A DNA stretch of 60,923 nt, counting the filler. It is 6 parts of 6 records of this genome, joined end to end, with 100 filler letters (N's around TTAATTAATTAA, not from the genome) between each part and the next. Parts side by side here need not be neighbours in the genome. Positions count along the whole stretch, not along the records: positions 39,663 to 48,923 come from SRR31156797_30391; 5 more parts are not named here. The stretch is one strand, 5' to 3'. The first letter of the stretch is position 1, and every line of letters starts with the position of its first letter. The position numbers were made by a program, and so were the translations under genes. The notes below the pieces were generated by a model, which worked only from the letters and a program-made list of their open reading frames with translations, searched no databases and was not told the DNA's origin. This document shows positions 3,418 through 54,800 of this stretch, piece after piece.

Positions 3418-3663
3418 CTGACGGCTCTCAACCTTCAACTCGCTTGAGCTTTGCTCATGGAGCCCCCCTTTTTTATTTGAAAAGAGAATTCGTCAGCATA
3501 AGTTCTTTCGTCCCAACGGTTCCAACCAGACATAGATGTACAGAAATCTCAAATAATATTTCTTCTAAAAGTATCCAAAAAACAGACACTTCTATTACAA
3601 TATTATCACGAACCTGATGAATATTGCCTTTTGTGTTGACACTCTCAACCTCACCTTGTATTG

Positions 3664-19957: not shown

Positions 19958-20057
19958 NNNNNNNNNNNNNNNNNNNNNNNNNNNNNNNNNNNNNNNNNNN
20001 NTTAATTAATTAANNNNNNNNNNNNNNNNNNNNNNNNNNNNNNNNNNNNNNNNNNNN
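19958..20057. other. Artificial contig spacer
   Basis: N44-TTAATTAATTAA-N44 (stops in all six frames); composition changes across it. Confidence 0.98.
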
Positions 20058-27981: not shown

Positions 27982-28081
27982 NNNNNNNNNNNNNNNNNNN
28001 NNNNNNNNNNNNNNNNNNNNNNNNNTTAATTAATTAANNNNNNNNNNNNNNNNNNNNNNNNNNNNNNNNNNNNNNNNNNNN
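27982..28081. other. Artificial contig spacer
   Basis: N44-TTAATTAATTAA-N44. Confidence 0.98.
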
Positions 28082-39477: not shown

Positions 39478-39562
39478 GCCGGGATGGCGGAATTGGTAGA
39501 CGCAGCGGACTCAAAATCCGCCGGTAGCAATGCCTTGCGAGTTCGAGTCTCGCTCCCGGTAC
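39478..39562 (+). tRNA. tRNA-Leu (anticodon CAA), 3' CCA cut by the contig end
   Basis: Acceptor GCCGGGA/TCCCGGT, D-arm GCGGAATTGGTAGACGC, anticodon arm GCGGA-CT-CAA-AA-TCCGC, long variable arm and T-arm GCGAG-TTCGAGT-CTCGC. Confidence 0.97.
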
Positions 39563-39662
39563 NNNNNNNNNNNNNNNNNNNNNNNNNNNNNNNNNNNNNN
39601 NNNNNNTTAATTAATTAANNNNNNNNNNNNNNNNNNNNNNNNNNNNNNNNNNNNNNNNNNNN
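39563..39662. other. Artificial contig spacer
   Basis: N44-TTAATTAATTAA-N44. Confidence 0.98.
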
Positions 39663-39664
39663 TG

Positions 39665-40930
39665 AATCTGGTAGCCGCTTTCTTTCTCAGAAACTCACGC
39701 TATCTCATGTTCATCTCGTCGGGCTCATTTGTCGCCTATCTCGCCTATATAGCGAGAATCTTGCTGGAAGGTATTGCGGCGGTTGAGGGAAAGATCCAGA
39801 GCGAGCAGATCATTATGGTCTCCATCGTCTACCTGGTCGGTCTTGTGCTGATCGTTTCGGAGAAGCGGCTTTTCAACGCCATCACCGCCGACGCCCTCAA
39901 GAGGTTTGAAGAGAGCGAGGTTCACAGCCAGAGGATGATCGAGCTCGTCAGCTCCGTCTCCGAGCAGATCGACAAGACCGAGGTCCTCAGGGAGGCGGCC
40001 GACGAAACGGGCATGGCCGTCGACCTTATAGACAACAGGGCCGGGAACATCCTGGAGGCCCTGGTCAACCTGAAAGAGGGGTTCGCCAGTACCAGCGGCG
40101 CTCTGAACGCCATCGGAAGCAGCCTTGAGGTGCTGAAGAACAACGCTAACAACCAGTCCGCCAACGTGACCCAGTCCAGCGCGGCCATCGAAGAGATGGT
40201 CGCCTCCATCAAATCTCTCTCCCAGAATGTGCGCAGCAGGAAGGAGAGCGTGGAAACGCTGATCGAAACCTCCCGGGGCGGGGAACGGGTCATGCAGGAA
40301 ACCGAGAGCGCCTTCAAGGCGGTCCTCGATCAGATCGGCAGCATCAGGGATATGACCAGTCTGATCAGCGGCATAGCCGCCCGTACGAATCTTCTGGCCA
40401 TGAACGCGGCTATCGAGGCGGCCCATGCGGGCGATGCGGGCCGGGGATTCGCGGTCGTTGCCGATGAGATCCGGAAGCTGGCGGAGAACAGCGCTTTCAA
40501 CACCAAGCAGATTTCAGAGAATCTAAACGTCATGATCGCGTCCATCGAAAAAACGGGAAGCCAGGTGAGGATGTCGGGGGACTCGTTCCGGGACATCCGG
40601 CAGGAGGTCGATCAGGTGGCCCGGGTCATGGAGGATATCCATACGGGAATGGACGAGCTCAACACGGGAAGCGAGGAGATCCTCAAGACCACGAGCAGCC
40701 TGAACGAACTGACCGTCAGCGTAATGGACAGCGTTCTGGACGTGGATGGAGACAAGAAGACCATTGACAGCAATCTCGAACGGAACTCCCAACTCTCGGG
40801 CAGGCTGGAACAGGTGGCCCAGGAGATTCAGAAGGACGCGGTAGAGATAAGAAAAACCAATGACCGGGTTCTGGATACGGCCGGTACCCTGTCCGACCAG
40901 TCCGCCGAGCTGAAGAGGGAGATCGTCTGA
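39665..40930 (+). CDS. Methyl-accepting chemotaxis protein, 5'-truncated
   Basis: [34 protein letters not shown] (the 'AAHAG' variant is common in spirochaetes); frame open from the contig edge. Confidence 0.93.
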
Positions 40931-40996
40931 CCCACCCGAAGCCCGGCGATGCCGGGATGCGCCGGAAGGGGCGCTCCGCGGCGGTCCGGCCGGGGA

Positions 40997-41611
40997 TCAG
41001 GGATTGTGGACGAAGCGCTCGCTGTTCCCCAGCATGAGGGATTCGATGGCGTGCTTTCTGCCGAGCCCCCTGAAGTCGACCTTCCATATCTCTCCGTTGT
41101 TGGGGAATCCCTCCGGATAGAGGGGAAGGCTGTCTTCGAGAACGGCCCTGATCAGACGGAAGGTCACCGCATGGGTCACTATCAGGATCCGTTCGTCCGA
41201 GTCCGGATCCAAATCCGAAAAGAAGGATTTCACCCTCTCCGCTATCATACGATAGGACTCGCCGCCTTCCGCGGGCACCCAGTCCCAGCGTTTGGAGGTC
41301 TCCGTTTCGTACTGTCTCTCTTCCTTGACCTGATCGTAGGTCATGCCGGAGTAGCGGCCGAGCTCCTGCTCTGAAACCCTTTCATCCAGCTCCAGCTCCA
41401 GACCGAAGCGTCCGGCGAAGGCCTCGGCCGTCTGGACCGCCCGTATCAGGGGAGAGGAGATGATCCTGTCCAGAGACACCAGTTCGGCAAGTTCCCGGGC
41501 GATAAGATCAGCATCGGTCCGGCCCTCGACCGTCAGGGGGAACGGGAGGCGGCTGGCCATGATCCTCTGCCTGTTGGCTTCGCTCTGCGCGTGTCTTATC
41601 AGATACAGCAT
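40997..41611 (-). CDS. Histidine phosphatase (phosphoglycerate mutase-like) family protein
   Basis: LYLIRHAQS, SSPL.RA.QTA, GGES and VTH. Confidence 0.92.
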   Translation of the reverse strand: MLYLIRHAQSEANRQRIMASRLPFPLTVEGRTDADLIARELAELVSLDRIISSPLIRAVQTAEAFAGRFGLELELDERVSEQELGRYSGMTYDQVKEERQYETETSKRWDWVPAEGGESYRMIAERVKSFFSDLDPDSDERILIVTHAVTFRLIRAVLEDSLPLYPEGFPNNGEIWKVDFRGLGRKHAIESLMLGNSERFVHNP

Positions 41612-41713
41612 ATTACTTCCTTGTGTCCGATGTAAGCTCCATTTGAGCTTTCGGGATGCTTCTCATAGGGTGCGAAGGGCCTCGCCCGGCGGGGATGCCC
41701 TCTTCTCTATGAG
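41612..41713 (-). ncRNA. Candidate structured 5'-leader RNA, copy 1
   Basis: Two hairpins (CTCATAG/CTATGAG; CCGA-AAGCTC/GAGCTT-TCGG); 65-nt core is homologous to 45895-45959. Confidence 0.6.
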
Positions 41714-41719
41714 GGGATC

Positions 41720-41748
41720 AGTGTAGCGGATTTCCCTTGCTGGGCCAA
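41720..41748 (-). promoter_or_regulatory. Sigma-70 promoter for leader copy 1 and the histidine phosphatase
   Basis: TTGGCC-N17-TACACT on the minus strand. Confidence 0.6.
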
Positions 41749-41924
41749 GAGTATCCCGTTCCCCTGGTAGGGGCCCTGCGGAAAGAGGGGAGAAAGGGAC
41801 AAGAATTCATCCGATCTTTGACAACCGCCCCTGGAACGCAGTAGTATTAAAGCTGGACGGCGATCATTGTCGTCCTAGTTTAAACGAGAGGGTAACCGGG
41901 AACTCCGGATAAGGAAGAACATAA

Positions 41925-42296
41925 ATGAAGATCCTGATAGTCGATGATTCCAAAGCGGCACGCATGCTGGTCAAATCCATCCTGAGCGACTATGACCCGA
42001 CCGTCAGTCTGTTCGAAGCTGCCAACGGCCTTCAGGCCATAGATCGTTATGAAAAGGAGAAGCCCGATCTCGTGTTTCTCGATCTGACCATGCCGGAGAT
42101 GGACGGTTACGAAGCCCTGGAAAAGCTGAAGGATTCGGATCCGGACGCCCACATTATCATACTGACAGCCGATGTGCAGCAGAAGTCCATCGAACGCTGT
42201 CTGGCCCTGGGGGCATGGAAGGTTATGAAGAAGTTGCCTGACAAGGCGACCATCTATTCCATCCTCGACGAGAGAAAAGCGGAACTGACCCGATGA
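41925..42296 (+). CDS. Single-domain response regulator (CheY-like)
   Basis: ILIVDDS, FLDLTMPEMDG, TAD and K. Confidence 0.9.
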   Translation: MKILIVDDSKAARMLVKSILSDYDPTVSLFEAANGLQAIDRYEKEKPDLVFLDLTMPEMDGYEALEKLKDSDPDAHIIILTADVQQKSIERCLALGAWKVMKKLPDKATIYSILDERKAELTR

Positions 42297-42928
42297 AGAA
42301 AGATGTCTTGCTGACGGAAATGGAACTGGACGCTCTCCAGGAGACAATGAATATCTCCTTCGGCTCTGCGGCGGCCGATCTGGCGGAGATCATGGATATC
42401 TTTATCCAGCTCACAGTCCCGGATATCAGCGCCGTCAAAGTCTCCTCCCTTTCCAGTATCCTTGAAGAGAATATCAATGATTTTCACTCCTGCAGCGTGG
42501 TGGAACAGCAGTTCCACGGTGATTTCAAAGGGATGGCGTTCCTGGTTTTTCCCCATGGGGACGAGATGGATCTGATCTCTTACTTTCAGTATCCCGGAAC
42601 CCAGAGCTTTAAGTCGGATGAGCTTATCGATCTTGAGAAGGAGGTCCTTCTCGAGGTGGGTAATATCCTGATCGGAGCCTGCATAGGCCGGATCTTCGAA
42701 CTCCTGGAAAGCAGTATCTCCTACTCGCCGCCCCTCGTCTTGAAGGGGCGGGATTTCGACAGCTCCCTCCTGAATACGGAGGTTCAATCTCAGGATATCA
42801 CGATTATGATGAAGACTTTTTTCAAATTTGAAGACAGGGATACCAAGGGCTATCTCTTTCTTATCAACAGCTATGAATCCATTCCCCATCTGAAGAAAGC
42901 GCTGAGCCGCTTTCTGGGAGGGGAATAG
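42293..42928 (+). CDS. CheC-like phosphatase
   Basis: Two ExxN motifs: DALQETMNI and EVLLEVGNIL. Confidence 0.85.
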   Translation: MKKDVLLTEMELDALQETMNISFGSAAADLAEIMDIFIQLTVPDISAVKVSSLSSILEENINDFHSCSVVEQQFHGDFKGMAFLVFPHGDEMDLISYFQYPGTQSFKSDELIDLEKEVLLEVGNILIGACIGRIFELLESSISYSPPLVLKGRDFDSSLLNTEVQSQDITIMMKTFFKFEDRDTKGYLFLINSYESIPHLKKALSRFLGGE

Positions 42929-42932
42929 GAGC

Positions 42933-43907
42933 ATGTACAAACAGGTCCTTGACGTTTTGAATCAGGGCATTGTGATACTGGATTCACAGTATACGGTGTT
43001 GGAATGGAACAGCTGGATGGAGATCAACAGCGGACTCAAAAGAGAGGACGTCGTCGGTACCAGCCTTTTCAATCACTACCCCGATCTGAGTACTCCCAGC
43101 TTTACCCGGAGTTTCAAATCGGTCCTTCGTTTCGGCAACTATGTCTACTTTTCCCAGAAACTCCATCGCTACCTCTTCCCCTTCAAGCTCACCGGAGTGT
43201 ACTCCCAGTATTTTGAATATATGCAGCAGAGCTGCACTCTCACGCCCCTCAGGGATGAGGCCGGAGCGATCGGCAACATCGTCGTCTCCGTGCAGAACGT
43301 GACCGAGAGCGTCTATCTGGAACAGAACCTCAAGCTCATGACCCAGCAGGACAGCCTGACGGGCATCTACAACCGTCGCTTTCTGGACAGGAGGCTGGAA
43401 GAGGAGTTCAAACGGTTCAGGAGGAGCGGGCGCCGCTTCAGCCTTCTTATGATCGATATCGATAACTTCAAGAAGGTGAACGATACCTACGGGCATCAGT
43501 TCGGCGACCAGGTTCTGAAGGTCATCGCCCGCTGCTGCTCCAGTCAGATACGGGGCAGCGATATCGTGGCCCGTTTCGGAGGAGAGGAGTTCGCCGTCGC
43601 CCTGATGGACTCTTCCGCGGAAGGGGCCGTCTCCTTCGCCGAGCGTCTGAGAAAGACAATCCAGGAGTATAAGGTCACCACCGACACGGGGCAGTCCGTA
43701 AGCGTGACCGTCAGCATCGGTGTGGATGAGGTGAATGAGAAAAAGAATTCCTGGGAAGAGATTCTGGGAAATGCGGACGCCGCCCTATACGTATCGAAGA
43801 AACGAGGAAAGAACTGCGTCACCCTCTTCGACCCCTCCATTGATAAAGCGGCTGCCAAGGAGAGGAGAGCCAAGCGCAAAGGCGACTCGGGTTCCCCGTC
43901 CTCTTAG
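42933..43907 (+). CDS. PAS-GGDEF diguanylate cyclase
   Basis: PAS (GIVILD...WN.WM...G), DSLTG.YNRR, DIDNFKKVNDTYGH, RGSD I-site and RFGGEEF. Confidence 0.93.
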   Translation: MYKQVLDVLNQGIVILDSQYTVLEWNSWMEINSGLKREDVVGTSLFNHYPDLSTPSFTRSFKSVLRFGNYVYFSQKLHRYLFPFKLTGVYSQYFEYMQQSCTLTPLRDEAGAIGNIVVSVQNVTESVYLEQNLKLMTQQDSLTGIYNRRFLDRRLEEEFKRFRRSGRRFSLLMIDIDNFKKVNDTYGHQFGDQVLKVIARCCSSQIRGSDIVARFGGEEFAVALMDSSAEGAVSFAERLRKTIQEYKVTTDTGQSVSVTVSIGVDEVNEKKNSWEEILGNADAALYVSKKRGKNCVTLFDPSIDKAAAKERRAKRKGDSGSPSS

Positions 43908-43915
43908 GTGTTCAA

Positions 43916-45382
43916 TCAGACAGATTGTACCTCTTCCTGAGCCCTGTCGAAACCCATTAATGTGGCGTCGGAAGGTTTCTCGGTAAAGAGACTGACGATG
44001 ACGACAGCGACAAATGCCAGTATGAAACCGGGGAAGAGTTCGTAAACATACTCGCCTTCCATGCTGACATAGTTCTTTACGACAAAGATGGTCAGAGATC
44101 CGGTGATTATTCCGGCCAGAGCCCCCGCCCATGTCGTTTTGCGCCAGATCAGCGAAAGAAGGATAACCGGACCGAAGGCCGCGCCGAATCCGCCCCAGGC
44201 GTATCCCACCATGCTGAGAATGTTTCCCGAATCGGTGAAGGCAATGAGAAAGGCCAACAGGGCGAATCCCACGACTCCGAGCCTGCTGATCCACTCCTTC
44301 CTGGCGTCGTCCATTCTGCGGATAGCGGGAATGTCCTCGGTAAGGGAGGAGGTCAGAACCAGAAGCTGAGAGTCTGCGGTGGACATCACCGCCGCCAGAA
44401 CGGCCGCGAGAACGAATCCGCCGAAAACCGGATGGAAAAGGGCCGAGGTCATGGCCAGGAAGATCTTCTCGCTATTGGCGTCGGGACCGCTGAGTCCTTC
44501 CATGGGACTGATGGCGTTGAAGCCTATGCCCACTAAGCCGATGGTAATGGCGAGAGTCATGCAAATGCCCATCCAGGAAATTCCGATACGTCGCGCCCTG
44601 GTTACGGATTTTACGTCTTTGATACCGATGAATCTGGTCAGGATATGGGGCTGTCCGAAGTAACCGAAGCCCCATGCCATCAGGGAGATACCCGTAATCC
44701 AGCTGATGGATACATTGAAGGCATCCGGATTGGCCGAAGCGATTCCGCTTCCCTTACCGGATACCGCGAAGAATCCGAGGAGCGCGCAGAAGAGAAGGGC
44801 TCCGAGCATCAGAATCCCCTGGATCAGGTCGGTCCAGCAGACCGCCATATAACCGCCCAGAAATGTGTAGGAGACGACCACCAGGGTGGTGACGATAAGC
44901 CCCACTTTCTCGCTGGCCCCGAAGGTATGGGCGAAGAGCAGCGTTCCTCCTTTGAGGCCTGAGGCCACATAGAGGGTGAAGAATATGAGGATGACCAGGG
45001 TGGATAGGACCTGGATGATCCCCTTCTGATCGTCGAAGCGCTTGCCGAGATACCCGGGAATGGTCACGGCCCTGTAGTAGGCGGTAGCGGATCGCAGACG
45101 GCCCGCCACGACCAGCCAGTTGAAGTACGCGCCGATCAGGAGTCCCAGGCAGATCCAGAATCCTTCAACAAGCCCTCCGGCGAATACGGCGCCGGGAATT
45201 CCCAGAAGAAGCCAGCTGGACATATCGGAAGCGCCGGCGGAGATGGCGCTGGTGACGGGGCCTATGGTTCGGCCACCGATAAGAAAGTCCTCGTTTGTAT
45301 TGGTTTTTTTCATAGACACGTAGCCTACTCCGAGCATGAGGAGAAGATACAGTCCGAATTGGATGTAGAAAATCACGTTCAC
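43916..45382 (-). CDS. putP: Sodium/proline symporter
   Basis: SAGASDMSSWLLLGIPG, WTDLIQG, GYFGQPHIL, AAVMSTADSQLL and YAWGGFGAAFGP. Confidence 0.92.
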   Translation of the reverse strand: MNVIFYIQFGLYLLLMLGVGYVSMKKTNTNEDFLIGGRTIGPVTSAISAGASDMSSWLLLGIPGAVFAGGLVEGFWICLGLLIGAYFNWLVVAGRLRSATAYYRAVTIPGYLGKRFDDQKGIIQVLSTLVILIFFTLYVASGLKGGTLLFAHTFGASEKVGLIVTTLVVVSYTFLGGYMAVCWTDLIQGILMLGALLFCALLGFFAVSGKGSGIASANPDAFNVSISWITGISLMAWGFGYFGQPHILTRFIGIKDVKSVTRARRIGISWMGICMTLAITIGLVGIGFNAISPMEGLSGPDANSEKIFLAMTSALFHPVFGGFVLAAVLAAVMSTADSQLLVLTSSLTEDIPAIRRMDDARKEWISRLGVVGFALLAFLIAFTDSGNILSMVGYAWGGFGAAFGPVILLSLIWRKTTWAGALAGIITGSLTIFVVKNYVSMEGEYVYELFPGFILAFVAVVIVSLFTEKPSDATLMGFDRAQEEVQSV

Positions 45383-45491
45383 CGTCCTTAATTTTTTAAT
45401 TATTAAAGTAATGAATAATTAATAGATTTGTAATGTATGGAAATGATACGGCATTGCCGCCGTTTAGGTCAATTGGGAATGTATATTTATA

Positions 45492-45525
45492 CGGCCTGAG
45501 TCTTTCTTTCCTAGACTCAGGGCCG
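45492..45525. terminator. Hairpin downstream of the cupin gene
   Basis: CCTGAGTCT/AGACTCAGG stem; poor U-tract on the minus strand. Confidence 0.5.
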
Positions 45526-45554
45526 ATTGTTTGATTTTATTACGGATTTTCTGT

Positions 45555-45887
45555 TTAAAGATGCGGAGCGCAGGCCCATGCGGTGACGGAGATGGCGTCT
45601 CCGATATTGACGCTGTAATGGGGCTGGCCTTCGGGGATCAGGATGCAGTCGCCCTTGTGCAGCTCGTGAACCTCATCCAGATCGGGCAGGTGCATGGCAA
45701 TCCTGCCCTCTATTACGTAACAGGTTTCGTCGGCACCCGTATGCCCCTTGTCCACGCAGGCTTTCTGGCCGGGCAGAAGGGTGCTGGTGGCGAAGATCAG
45801 TTTATCGGTGTGAAAGTACACCTTGGTAAACTCATCCCCCTCCAGAAGGTTTTTCGTATCGTTGTAGCGGACGATCTTTGTGCTCAT
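45555..45887 (-). CDS. Small cupin-domain protein
   Basis: PG......GH...DE..YVIEG and GD.I.IP.G.PH...N.G cupin motifs. Confidence 0.88.
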   Translation of the reverse strand: MSTKIVRYNDTKNLLEGDEFTKVYFHTDKLIFATSTLLPGQKACVDKGHTGADETCYVIEGRIAMHLPDLDEVHELHKGDCILIPEGQPHYSVNIGDAISVTAWACAPHL

Positions 45888-45972
45888 TCATTTCTCCTTT
45901 TATCCTGTTCTAGCTCCAGCGGAGCTCCGGTGGCTTGCTTTCATAGGGACGAAGGGCCTGCCTATGGTAAGC
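45888..45972 (-). ncRNA. Candidate structured 5'-leader RNA, copy 2
   Basis: Hairpins GCTT..CATAGG/CCTATG.AAGC and AGCTCC/GGAGCT; core homologous to 41618-41682. Confidence 0.6.
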
Positions 45973-45979
45973 TGGATCT

Positions 45980-46008
45980 ACTATCCGACGAGGGATGATT
46001 CCTGTCAA
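45980..46008 (-). promoter_or_regulatory. Sigma-70 promoter for leader copy 2 and the cupin
   Basis: TTGACA-N17-GATAGT on the minus strand. Confidence 0.6.
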
Positions 46009-46118
46009 GGGAAACCCGAAAAAGGGCCGGCCACAGTCGATCCCGCCGGACGGTTTCACCAGGGTCATGAGGGCATGGGAAACCGAAGGATTTAATGCCG
46101 CCGGACTCTCATAAGGGA

Positions 46119-46502
46119 TCAGTCGCTGCCCCTGCTCTTTTCCAGTTCCCGAACCTTCTTGTCGATCTGATTGACCCTGTACTCGATGGAGTTGAGGATC
46201 CAGAACTGGAAATGACTGACCTTGTGGGCATTGTTCATCATCCAGATGATCTTGATGGAAAGGAAAAGGAGCCCCACCTCCAGGGAGACGAAGGGCGGCA
46301 GGAAGTGGGTCGTGACCTCAAGGACAAAGAAGGTGAGGACGACGATCAGGAAACCCATATTGATCAGCTTCTCCCTCCGTACAGAGCGGGTGCCCCCAAG
46401 ATTGCCAAGTATCTGCTTGACCCTCTCTTTCTCCTTCTTGAACTCTTCGAGCTCCCTCTCAAGTTCCTTTTCCCTGTCGCTTACAGTCTTTTGGTCATCC
46501 AT
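46119..46502 (-). CDS. Hypothetical membrane protein (coiled coil, 2 TM, coiled coil)
   Basis: 127 aa with AAGGAG RBS; charged heptad N-terminus and two hydrophobic segments. Confidence 0.75.
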   Translation of the reverse strand: MDDQKTVSDREKELERELEEFKKEKERVKQILGNLGGTRSVRREKLINMGFLIVVLTFFVLEVTTHFLPPFVSLEVGLLFLSIKIIWMMNNAHKVSHFQFWILNSIEYRVNQIDKKVRELEKSRGSD

Positions 46503-46642
46503 CGGCAGCCTGTCTCCTTTTACATGATCCTTTGCCCATTATAACCTGATACGCCAGTTCGGAAAAAGGGAGCTGTCCAAACGATCCTGTTCCAGGAGGC
46601 TTCACAGGTTGTAGGGGCAGTCAATCACGTGATCGGGATCAG

Positions 46643-47275
46643 CTATTGTAACAGCCTCATAAGATCATCCGGCGATCTGAGCCTGCCATCGGGCCTAAGG
46701 GCCATCCCGAAGCCGTACTCCGAATGGATAAAGGGAAGTCCCGCCTCCCGGGCTGACTGTTCGTCCAGGGCCGTGTCACCGATATAGACTCCCCTCCGGA
46801 TCCCGTTTCTCTCCAGGATAAAGCCTATGTTCCTGGACTTCTTCATTCCCGTTCGTCCGGAGCACTCGAAATCCCTGAAAAGCTCTGCTAATCCGTGGTA
46901 CTCCAGAAAGGCTTCTATATAACCGTCCTGACAGTTACTGACAATATACAGGGGCCGCGTTGGGGCCAGCGCTTTCAAAACCCTTTCCATGCCGGGATAG
47001 AGATCTCCCCCGCGACGGCGGATCGTCGCTATCTCCTCCGCATAGCACTCGAGGAGGATCCTTCCCTGATCCTCTTCCTTCAGTCCGGGTAGAAGATGGC
47101 GGCCCACCTCGTCATCGGGTAGACCCATGATGCTCTGGAGATCCTTTTTCCCGGGAACGGGACTGATGCCCCTGCGGGAGAGTACGGCCTGCCAGGCCAG
47201 GGTGCAGCTCTCCGACGAGTCCCACAGGGTGCCGTCCAGGTCGAAGATCAGGGCGTCGCGGTCTTTGAGTGTCAT
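46643..47275 (-). CDS. HAD-family hydrolase
   Basis: IFDLDGTLWDS, IVSN and YIGDT..D...A. Confidence 0.92.
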   Translation of the reverse strand: MTLKDRDALIFDLDGTLWDSSESCTLAWQAVLSRRGISPVPGKKDLQSIMGLPDDEVGRHLLPGLKEEDQGRILLECYAEEIATIRRRGGDLYPGMERVLKALAPTRPLYIVSNCQDGYIEAFLEYHGLAELFRDFECSGRTGMKKSRNIGFILERNGIRRGVYIGDTALDEQSAREAGLPFIHSEYGFGMALRPDGRLRSPDDLMRLLQ

Positions 47276-47315
47276 AGGACCTCCTTCATGCCGGATTGAT
47301 TTTCATCGGCAGTAT

Positions 47316-47681
47316 CTATTTTTTTCCCATCTGCTCATCAAGGGTTCTGGTCAGATGGCTTACGGTGGAACCGGTGTGCTTCGTCGATTTCAGCTCAATC
47401 AGCATGACCCGGCACTCCTTTTCGGCCCGGGGGAAGTGGCGGCGTCCCTTCCTGACCACATGCATATCCCCTTCTGTCAGGACCTCTTCCGCATCATCAT
47501 AATGAATGATCAGAGAGCCATCTACTACATAGAAAAGTTCATCCTCATCGTCGTGGGTATGCCAAACGAAGTCGCCCTTGACCTTGGCGATCTTCACATA
47601 GGAATCGTTGACCTCCGCCACGATAACGGGCGCCCAGTATTCATTGATTTTATCGAACTCTTCATTCAGGTTGCTGATCAT
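47316..47681 (-). CDS. Cupin-domain protein
   Basis: W.P.IVAEVND, GDFVWHTHDDEDELFYV and HFP.A. Confidence 0.9.
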   Translation of the reverse strand: MISNLNEEFDKINEYWAPVIVAEVNDSYVKIAKVKGDFVWHTHDDEDELFYVVDGSLIIHYDDAEEVLTEGDMHVVRKGRRHFPRAEKECRVMLIELKSTKHTGSTVSHLTRTLDEQMGKK

Positions 47682-47899
47682 CTTAACTCCTTGACTTCAC
47701 TCATAAGGGACTCTGGAAATACAAGCAACAGTATAGCCGATTGTTGGGAACATTGCTTCAGGTATTTTATTGTCAGACCTGACAGGATATACATTATCAT
47801 TAGAGTAATAATAGGTCTGTCCGTGTTGTATATGTACTATAATTAATCTACAAGGCCTTCTATTGTAGTCATGATTGAACCCTTCTCAGGAGGATCGCA

Positions 47900-48922
47900 A
47901 TGGCTTTCTTCAGATATTTCACTGTTATCTCGTATTGGATTTTAACTGTTCTATGGTCTTTTATCTTTGTTTTTTATATCAGGAAGATCATTAATAGAAA
48001 GCTCGGCAGCAAATTATTGTTTACCCTTCTTACAATTCTGGCAATTGATTCATTTAGAACACTTTTTGAAAGCCTTTATTTCGGCTTCTGGTTTACATCT
48101 CTGGAAGGGTTTCTCCCAGAATCAATACATGCCGTACTGGTTCGGCCCGAAAATGTGTTCATACCGAAGAGCATCAACGTCATAGCGGCCTTATTGATCA
48201 TTGTCATCCTCTTAAAACACTGGATCCCGGAAGAGCTGGCCGAGAGAAAAAGGGACATGGCGCATACGGAAGAACTGAAGGGTGAGATAGATCGCAGGAA
48301 AGCCATAGAGAGAAAGCTGATGAAGAACGAAGAGCAGCTTATGGAAGCTCAAAAGCAGGCTCAGCTCGGCTACTATGTCCTCAATATCAATGAGATGAAA
48401 TGGAGCAGCTCTATCGTCCTTGATGAGATCTTCGGTATCGATGACGATTATACGAGGGACTATGAAGGATGGGTGAATCTTCTGCATCCTGAAGATCGGG
48501 ACATGATGATTTCCTATCTTGAGAAATTTGTCCTGTCTGAACACGAAGAGTTCAATAAGGAGTACAGAATCGTCAATCTTAGGGATCGGAAAACGGTCTG
48601 GATCCATGGGATCGGGCATCTGAAATTCGATGGTGACGGCAGTTTGTATGAAATGTTTGGGACCATTCAGGATGTTACCGAACACAAAAAGCTTATCACC
48701 GATCTCGAGGATGCTCTGCAGAATATTAAAATACTGGGCGGTTTGATTCCCATCTGTTCTAAATGCAAAAACGTTCGTGACGATAAAGGATACTGGGAGC
48801 ATCTTGAGTCCTATATTGACAGGCATTCGGATATGTCTTTCAGCCACTCTCTCTGTCCGAAATGCGCAAAGGAACTGTACGGCGATGAGAAATGGTTCGG
48901 TAGAATGACAGAAGAGGATTAG
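47900..48922 (+). CDS. Membrane-anchored PAS protein with C-terminal Cys/His (putative Zn-binding) domain
   Basis: 3 TM segments, coiled coil, PAS_3 (HPEDR, EYRI, GTIQDVT), then IPICSKCK.VRD..GYW...SH.LCPKC. Confidence 0.82.
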   Translation: MAFFRYFTVISYWILTVLWSFIFVFYIRKIINRKLGSKLLFTLLTILAIDSFRTLFESLYFGFWFTSLEGFLPESIHAVLVRPENVFIPKSINVIAALLIIVILLKHWIPEELAERKRDMAHTEELKGEIDRRKAIERKLMKNEEQLMEAQKQAQLGYYVLNINEMKWSSSIVLDEIFGIDDDYTRDYEGWVNLLHPEDRDMMISYLEKFVLSEHEEFNKEYRIVNLRDRKTVWIHGIGHLKFDGDGSLYEMFGTIQDVTEHKKLITDLEDALQNIKILGGLIPICSKCKNVRDDKGYWEHLESYIDRHSDMSFSHSLCPKCAKELYGDEKWFGRMTEED

Positions 48923-48923
48923 C

Positions 48924-49023
48924 NNNNNNNNNNNNNNNNNNNNNNNNNNNNNNNNNNNNNNNNNNNNTTAATTAATTAANNNNNNNNNNNNNNNNNNNNN
49001 NNNNNNNNNNNNNNNNNNNNNNN
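48924..49023. other. Artificial contig spacer
   Basis: N44-TTAATTAATTAA-N44. Confidence 0.98.
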
Positions 49024-54700: not shown

Positions 54701-54800
54701 NNNNNNNNNNNNNNNNNNNNNNNNNNNNNNNNNNNNNNNNNNNNTTAATTAATTAANNNNNNNNNNNNNNNNNNNNNNNNNNNNNNNNNNNNNNNNNNNN
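54701..54800. other. Artificial contig spacer
   Basis: N44-TTAATTAATTAA-N44. Confidence 0.98.

Follow-up and report, generated by a model that had tools for sequence, protein, structure and literature searches.

We analysed a stretch of DNA of 60,923 nucleotides (the window) in which two unrelated genes on the minus strand, a histidine phosphatase gene of the His_Phos_1 family and a Cupin_2 gene, are preceded by similar leaders. An earlier note on this DNA had taken the two leaders for a candidate new riboswitch or cis-regulatory RNA. Our results indicate that they are very probably diverged copies of a lineage-specific interspersed repeat of ~60-70 nt, which belongs to Oceanispirochaeta-like spirochaetes and bears a ribosome-binding site, and not a riboswitch. 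The repeat family is best read as belonging to the REP2/MIRU-like class of ribosome-binding-site-bearing intergenic repeats. No published description of it was found in a full-text literature search, and the family appears to be undescribed to date.

A unit begins with a small hairpin, P0 (AAGG-CC-CUUM-GGCC), continues through an A-rich linker ending in AUCACC into a hairpin of 10-11 bp, P2, and closes with GGUAG(GA)CA. Units lie in 5' untranslated regions and between cistrons, on the transcribed strand, either singly or in direct tandem. The last unit leads into AAGGAG, which resembles the truncated AAGG start of a next unit and provides the Shine-Dalgarno (SD) sequence of the downstream gene.

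Two related leaders in the window

Both minus-strand leaders were present with the sequences that the earlier note had quoted, and its description of a structured leader on the transcribed strand, common to two unrelated genes and ending in an SD, was borne out for both copies. Copy 1 runs up to the ATG of His_Phos_1 and copy 2 up to the ATG of Cupin_2. The blocks common to both are AGGCCCTTCG, CCCTATGA, AAGCA, AGCTC..GGAGCT, GGA and AAGGA, and the mean column identity between the copies was 70-77% in MAFFT alignments. The 9-mer GGCCCTTCG alone was not significant (2 matches against 0.78 expected, with 20 of 100 shuffles reaching 2), whereas the whole element was. A covariance model, R2, for which 68 copies were taken from other genomes and none from the window, found exactly two sites on both strands of the 60.9 kb, at 45893-45961 (36.2 bits) and 41615-41684 (24.9 bits), and nothing else below E 0.2, the next best match having an E of 0.23. 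A second model, R1, was built from 8 seeds. The features of the two copies are:

45893-45961, minus strand: repeat copy 2, with degenerate P0, A-rich linker, P2, box and SD (R2, 36.2 bits, E 8e-11; R1, 71.7 bits)
45912-45926, minus strand: P2 apex of copy 2, AGCUCC-GCU-GGAGCU, with the consensus lower stem lost (sequence, folding, R2)
45894-45899, minus strand: SD AAGGAG, 6 nt before the cupin ATG (sequence)
45962-45972, minus strand: 5' arm CCAUAGG of a local stem around copy 2, not a feature of the family
41615-41684, minus strand: repeat copy 1, more decayed than copy 2 (R2, 24.9 bits, E 1e-6; non-standard pairs in P0 and P2)
41635-41649, minus strand: P2 apex of copy 1, AGCUC-AAAUG-GAGCU (sequence)
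41616-41622, minus strand: SD AAGGAAG, 4 nt before the phosphatase ATG (sequence)

Copy 1 folded better than its shuffles (z -3.6), and copy 2 folded no better than its shuffles (z -0.06). Both copies are diverged: R2 flags non-standard pairs in their P0 and in the lower P2 half. Two changes found in strains X2-X4, at 41643/41644, turn the apex of copy 1 into the canonical CUCC-GAU-GGAG, and both leaders are kept in ~96-99% identical strains from three other runs.

Census of the repeat family in relatives

The 22-nt exact pattern of the window copies had 0 matches in genome_contigs and 0 in metagenome_contigs, and viral_contigs gave 0 matches to the repeat pattern. With up to 3 mismatches allowed, matches in 101 relatives of genome G001, which matches the first contig of the window, were at chance level; the reversed control was equal, and 0/15 sites were element-like. 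Relatives were reached via the protein of the sodium:solute symporter gene that follows the cupin gene, which yielded 80 loci. The best of these, L024, comes from an Oceanispirochaeta metagenome-assembled genome (MAG) and is syntenic with the window, with amino-acid identities of 86% for the symporter, 90% for the cupin and 84% for His_Phos.

A mismatch-tolerant pattern search of the genomes of five spirochaete loci revealed a canonical form of the element at other genes, which reads AAGGCCCUUMGGCCC-UAUNNGARAAAAUCACC, a 10-11 bp hairpin, GGUAGGACA, UAAGGAG, N4-9 and AUG. In the five spirochaete genomes, R1 counted 57 copies in G102 (among 150 scored candidates), 17 in G104, 12 in G103, 5 in G105 and 0 in G106; among further genomes, it counted 98 in G108, 30 in G111, 6 in G109 and 0 in both G001 and G002. 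With R2, the family was detected in 8 of the 38 genomes of the order of G102, at 103, 51, 39, 14, 12, 10, 6 and 1 copies. The window contained no orthologues of the element-bearing genes of G102, only paralogue-level ABC ATPase matches.

In line with the earlier note, which had assigned the leaders to no known class, Rfam 15 gave no match in either leader, at the gathering score or at E up to 10, and six canonical copies likewise had no match up to an E of 1. The two leaders do not make up a two-gene regulon: the relatives carry dozens of copies before unrelated genes.

Position of the copies and tandem arrays

In G102, the closest relative, an Oceanispirochaeta MAG, a same-strand open reading frame (ORF) of 50 codons or more begins 2-9 nt after the element in 49 of the 51 tabulated copies; the two exceptions are the first unit of a tandem pair and a copy followed by a short frame. 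A ribosome-binding site at the 3' end, directly before the ORF, was found in 49/51 G102 copies and in both window copies. About half of the G102 copies are intercistronic, since 25 of the 51 have, ending within 60 nt upstream, an open frame in the same direction that is 80 codons or longer, and many copies begin 0-20 nt past the upstream open frame. The 49 downstream proteins matched 71 Pfam families, none of which was found in more than two proteins; among the downstream genes are those for TGT, UxaC, aconitase, starch synthase, CbiC and a transposase.

The earlier note had reasoned that the element would be a REP/MITE-like repeat if it had many copies that were randomly oriented or lay at the 3' ends of genes. 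Many copies were indeed found, but they are strictly co-oriented and lie at gene 5' ends.

Tandem arrays were observed in several places. In G108, a stop codon and an ATG enclose three 60-nt units, and 4-5 units come after a gene read by eye as nuoB, with no family search made on it; tandem pairs occur in further places. The arrays are direct, not alternating. Junctions within arrays read GGUAG-N-AAGGCCC and the last unit ends in GGUAG-N-AAGGAG, so that the SD looks like the truncated start of a further unit. The unit ends are direct AAGG on reading the alignments, and inverted ends were not seen by eye, no scan having been made for them. Inserts are flanked by AAGG, or by TGA/ATGA at the cupin junction, and these flanks may belong to the unit or be needed by the genes. 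In one array of G108 (L204, 1441-1640), the three 60-nt units could be read by eye as one open frame, with 20 codons per unit and continuing past the last unit, which may be due to chance.

An ORF follows only 1/9 copies in G104 and 1/5 in G105. At three loci of these genomes (L133, L139 and L123), the 3' end of a tRNA immediately precedes the copy and a terminator comes after it, so that the repeat is also located in tRNA trailers. Stand-alone copies, with no ORF following, were observed at L113 (G105) and L114 (G104), at ~1400-1620, after a terminator and promoter-like sequence. About 25 nt downstream of these copies lies GAAGAGGGCC, which is complementary to the 5' arm of P0; such a locus could be a small RNA gene.

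A leader peptide was also considered and rejected: an internal ATG occurs in just 23 of 75 copies, and its frame varies.

Structure and covariation

The second hairpin, which the earlier note had drawn as AGCTC/GAGCT, is strongly supported by covariation across the family. All 11 pairs of P2 have changed on both sides (one pair, for example, is AU in 34, GC in 30 and GU in 7 copies), and 89% of the P2 cells are paired, compared with ~51% when the partner is slid by one column. Shuffles reached the observed values in 0/500 cases on four of five measures and in 2/500 on the fifth, the number of pairs with changes on either side of the helix. The P0 stem is 84-92% paired and mostly invariant. Only two hairpin stems gave signal among the pairings tested, and there was no conserved multi-helix junction.

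The other helices proposed earlier fared differently. P1 (CATAG/CTATG) is peculiar to the two window copies and was not supported family-wide, the best 5'-flank helix being 4.61 nt against 4.50 +/- 0.11 nt in permuted pairs. The pairing of CCCUU with the AAGG of the SD, which was to give translational control, can form in 73.5% of the cells and is part of the minimum free energy structure of 3 of the 8 canonical copies folded. It showed no covariation, with 0-3 double changes and 10-27 unpaired cells per pair, and CCCTT is retained in 13 of the 19 copies that have no SD.

These results bear on the reading of the element as a new riboswitch, or ligand-sensing cis-regulatory RNA, in which CCCUU sequesters the SD. 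Such an RNA would be new, given that Rfam holds no match; the element does end in an SD, P2 covaries, and the sequestering helix can be drawn as described above. Yet the reading fails because of gene content, copy number, tandem arrays and the lack of covariation in the sequestering helix. The common metabolite that the earlier note had suggested is hard to reconcile with 71 Pfam families in 49 downstream proteins and with ~50-100 copies per genome in relatives. Direct arrays of up to 4-5 units, tRNA-trailer copies with no ORF at all, CCCTT in copies that lack an SD, a structural signal confined to two hairpin stems and orthologous genes that lack the element (see below) also argue against it. 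We therefore regard a riboswitch as very improbable.

GGA motifs were examined in the same alignments. In G102, the P2 apex reads CUCC-NNN-GGAG in 33/40 copies, an AGGA box follows P2 in 22/40 and an SD then follows in 38/40. The apex GGAG is present in 1/11 copies of G108 and 0/10 of G111, and the AGGA box in 1/11 and 1/10, respectively. A GGTAG is conserved at the foot of P2. The arrangement in G102 is what would be expected of a binding platform for one global regulator, by CsrA-type GGA recognition or through a trans-acting small RNA, with the genes downstream forming a large translational regulon. The fixed orientation and spacing to start codons, the retention with compensatory changes at an orthologous site (see below) and the stand-alone copies of G104 and G105, which follow promoter-like sequence and are followed by AAGAGGGCC, complementary to P0, are also consistent with a platform. 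Against it, the GGA motifs are not family-wide, and 70 nt of similarity and tandem arrays exceed what a protein site needs. A platform of this kind, a candidate drawn from sequence, seems unlikely to us.

Filled, empty and retained sites

We compared the window with the orthologous locus L024. The element is absent from both orthologous genes there, cupin and His_Phos, and R1 detected no element in 38 symporter-orthologous loci (324 kb). The features that this comparison involves are:

41685-41713, minus strand: 5' extension of copy 1, with the CUCAUAG arm of a local stem and a segment that is homologous to the native leader in the orthologue without the element (folding, alignment with L024)
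41720-41748, minus strand: promoter-like TTGGCC-N17-TACACT, conserved in L024 as TTGGCC..TAAAAT (sequence, orthologue alignment)
45980-46008, minus strand: promoter-like TTGACA-N17-GATAGT within the 231-nt spacer (promoter scan, 10/12 matches)
45888-46118, minus strand: 231-nt spacer with promoter-like site and element, absent from L024 (orthologous locus comparison)

At His_Phos, the window can be aligned with the promoter and native leader of L024 as far as the SD of L024 (GGAGG in L024, GCGAGG and then CCC in the window). Beyond this point the window has the element, followed by a new SD; the promoter predates the element. At the cupin gene, L024 (~3480-3525) has the stop of a 127-aa upstream ORF overlapping the cupin start by 4 nt (ATGA), which we read as putative translational coupling; the window has the 231-nt spacer in its place.

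The earlier note had placed both leaders just after a promoter. A promoter scan found TTGACA-N17-GATAGT before copy 2; TTGGCC-N17-TACACT before copy 1 fell under the threshold of the scan, although it is conserved at the orthologous L024. The position of both copies just downstream of promoter-like hexamers would fit a DNA operator or duplicated promoter shared by the two genes. But the two promoters are not similar to each other, L024 retains the His_Phos promoter although it lacks the element, and about half of the G102 copies lie directly after an upstream co-directional open frame. Since, moreover, the orientation of the copies follows transcription and the stem covaries, an operator or duplicated promoter can be set aside as extremely improbable.

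The element is retained at one orthologous site. It is kept before mnhE, the proteins of which are 85% identical between G108 and G111, in both of these genomes, and P2 differs there by two compensatory changes and a single wobble change. That compensation occurred at a site fixed between orthologues argues for selection on the hairpin after insertion, and this retention favours some function.

This result has to be set against the possibility that the repeat is purely selfish DNA of the REP/MITE-like kind, in which the hairpins would serve single-stranded DNA transposition and the association with the SD would be a by-product of target choice. High copy numbers that are very uneven among close relatives (0 to 103), presence and absence at orthologous sites, tandem and mosaic arrays, the GGTAG conserved at the foot of P2 and mismatches in P2 in which G-U (49) is not in excess over A-C (40) all accord with this possibility. 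On the other hand, the Y1 transposase (PF01797) does not track the element: G102 has 2, G106, which has no element, also has 2, and G108, G111 and G104 have none, the zero in G108, the genome richest in the repeat, being limited by a fragmented assembly. Further points against it are the direct, not alternating, arrays, the lack of terminal inverted repeats on reading the consensus by eye (no scan was made), the 49 of 51 copies that point the same way as the gene behind them and place an SD at working distance from it, and the selection on the hairpin argued for at mnhE. Purely selfish DNA is thus conceivable but rather doubtful.

One of the two Y1 transposase genes of G102 (C2:1197859-1198197) lies ~870 nt from an opposite-strand copy of the repeat (C2:1199066-1199134), which is probably a coincidence.

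Several minor observations were made at the two window sites. A minor contig of run X1 joins 41608 to 41887 at a depth of 3.5 against 687 and skips the leader and promoter of the phosphatase; it may derive from a relative without the element, and it is too weak to serve as an empty site. By eye, the -35 region CCCTTGACAGGAATCATCC (window 45990-46010, minus strand) looks like the 3' arm of P2 and the box (CUUGGYAGGA) plus the linker (AUCACC) of the repeat. Similarly, CTTGACAG was read in some G102 copies, and by this impression the repeat may seed -35 hexamers. The impression of decayed, element-like pieces in 45973-46118 found no support from R1 or R2.

Contig and gene context

Five artificial linkers of the form N44-TTAATTAATTAA-N44 were found, indicating that the window consists of six joined contigs. 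Both leaders lie wholly on one contig of 9.26 kb (39663-48923). The linkers and the genes around the leaders are:

19958-20057, 27982-28081, 39563-39662, 48924-49023 and 54701-54800, no strand: artificial contig linkers, N44-TTAATTAATTAA-N44 (sequence read)
39563-39662, no strand: artificial linker at the left end of the contig with the leaders (N44-TTAATTAATTAA-N44)
48924-49023, no strand: artificial linker at the right end of the same contig
40997-41611, minus strand: His_Phos_1 gene, 204 aa (Pfam family match, E 2e-40)
43916-45382, minus strand: sodium:solute symporter gene (SSF), 488 aa (family match, E 4e-82)
45555-45887, minus strand: Cupin_2 gene, 110 aa (family match)

The SSF symporter gene comes after the Cupin_2 gene on the minus strand. 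GC content jumps among the contigs of the window, from 35% up to 64%. The first contig (1-19957) is 99% identical to G001 and is the only window contig that G001 matches; both leader loci are absent from G001, and the cupin gene was found in 0/101 genomes around it. The contig with the leaders is Oceanispirochaeta-like, unlike the first contig, and more than one organism may be present in the assembly. At 39478-39561, a tRNA gene (55.8 bits) stops one base short of a contig linker.

Discussion

We propose that the repeat spread by a duplicative or insertional process that landed at the junction of SD and start codon. As RNA, its hairpins would act generically, without a ligand, on the processing, stability or translation initiation of the downstream cistron. 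In the window, the phosphatase gene and the cupin-symporter operon would thereby have gained a new leader and a new SD, and at the cupin gene the element would have arrived together with a promoter-like site.

Several points weigh against reading the two leaders as copies of such a repeat with a role as RNA. The copies were counted in the genomes of relatives and not in that of the window organism itself. Pairs of P0 and of the lower part of P2 are lost in the two window copies, which may be decaying relics in which the SD is the sole working part. Because G-U and A-C mismatches are about equally frequent in P2, selection could act on the hairpin in DNA, whichever the strand, instead of in the sense RNA. 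The predicted accessibility of the SD was 0.51, compared with 0.53 in shuffled sequences, and exceeded its own control in 21 of 51 copies; as it equals the shuffles, folding gives no hint that the SD is insulated or sequestered. No raw-read RNA run contains the stretch, the RNA runs listed having at most 0.10 of its words, and transcription, 5' ends and processing of the element are putative. As to its spread, terminal inverted repeats were not seen when the consensus was read by eye, without a scan, and the AAGG found at either end may belong to the unit itself instead of being a target duplication.

A bolder extension, which we consider speculative and improbable, is a mobile ribosome-binding-site cassette that homes to SD/start junctions. 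Such a cassette would enter an existing SD at its AGG, or a place where stop and start codons overlap, then rebuild an SD from its own repeated AAGG end and sometimes make promoters. A dedicated RNA-binding factor would recognise the conserved hairpins, and 1-2% of the genes in these spirochaetes would thereby form an acquired translational regulon.

The two leaders provide a worked example of a false lead in riboswitch hunting, in which a dispersed repeat explains the same structured leader before unrelated genes, and a genome-wide census in relatives is the test that decides between riboswitch and repeat. The family is unusually clean for its kind: it combines near-perfect co-orientation, an SD at the end of the last unit, direct arrays, strong covariation and both loss/gain and conservation at orthologous sites. 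Possible uses include the study of ribosome-binding-site and leader replacement in evolution, a strain-typing marker of variable copy number, and less mis-annotation of small ORFs and small RNAs in these genomes.

Comparison with known systems

The element resembles preQ1-II and other SD-sequestering riboswitches in being a small leader that ends in an SD and allows a pyrimidine:SD pairing. It differs from the preQ1-II type in that it has no Rfam match, no coherent gene set and no covariation of the sequestering helix.

Classical REPs carry a GTAG 5' of the palindrome. Like REP/BIME elements, the present repeats are short GC-rich hairpin repeats in transcribed spacers, form mosaic clusters and have a GTAG at the hairpin foot. 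Unlike REP/BIME elements with RAYT, they show no correlation with Y1_Tnp, their arrays are direct, and they have a 5'-end bias with an SD.

The IR-A/IR-B elements of Borrelia plasmids are, in the account given by a review, low-copy plasmid repeats with a promoter and an ATG (Dunn 1994, via PMC3184786). So far as that account describes them, the present family is alike in being a spirochaete repeat that directly precedes genes and has a ribosome-binding site as well as two stem-loops, and unlike in being chromosomal, high-copy and tandem; the comparison is one of descriptions.

MIRUs occur as tandem copies co-oriented with flanking genes, and the present repeat was likewise found in tandem and co-oriented within operons. 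According to the same review's treatment of them, MIRUs lie between cistrons within operons, are co-transcribed and show filled and empty orthologous sites (Supply 1997, via PMC3184786), and they contain short ORFs, which overlap with the stop and start codons of the genes on either side (PMC3184786). As far as this treatment goes, the present repeat is similar in its intercistronic position and in its filled versus empty orthologous sites. It differs in having no ORF that overlaps the flanking codons, its internal ATGs being confined to 23 of 75 copies in varying frames.

Neisseria REP2 is described in the review as a 120-150 bp repeat with an internal promoter and an ATG (Parkhill 2000; Morelle 2003, via Delihas 2011, PMC3184786). 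Within the limits of that description, the present unit is shorter (60-70 nt), lacks the internal promoter, has no ATG of its own, often stands right after a stop codon, forms direct tandem arrays and belongs to another phylum. It shares with REP2, by description and not by sequence comparison, an interspersed distribution in tens of copies directly before ORFs, two internal stem-loops, a 3' ribosome-binding site and a lack of terminal inverted repeats (judged by eye in the present family, no scan having been made), again as far as the review's account extends. At the cupin gene the likeness to REP2 goes further, in that the inserted segment also carries a promoter-like site.

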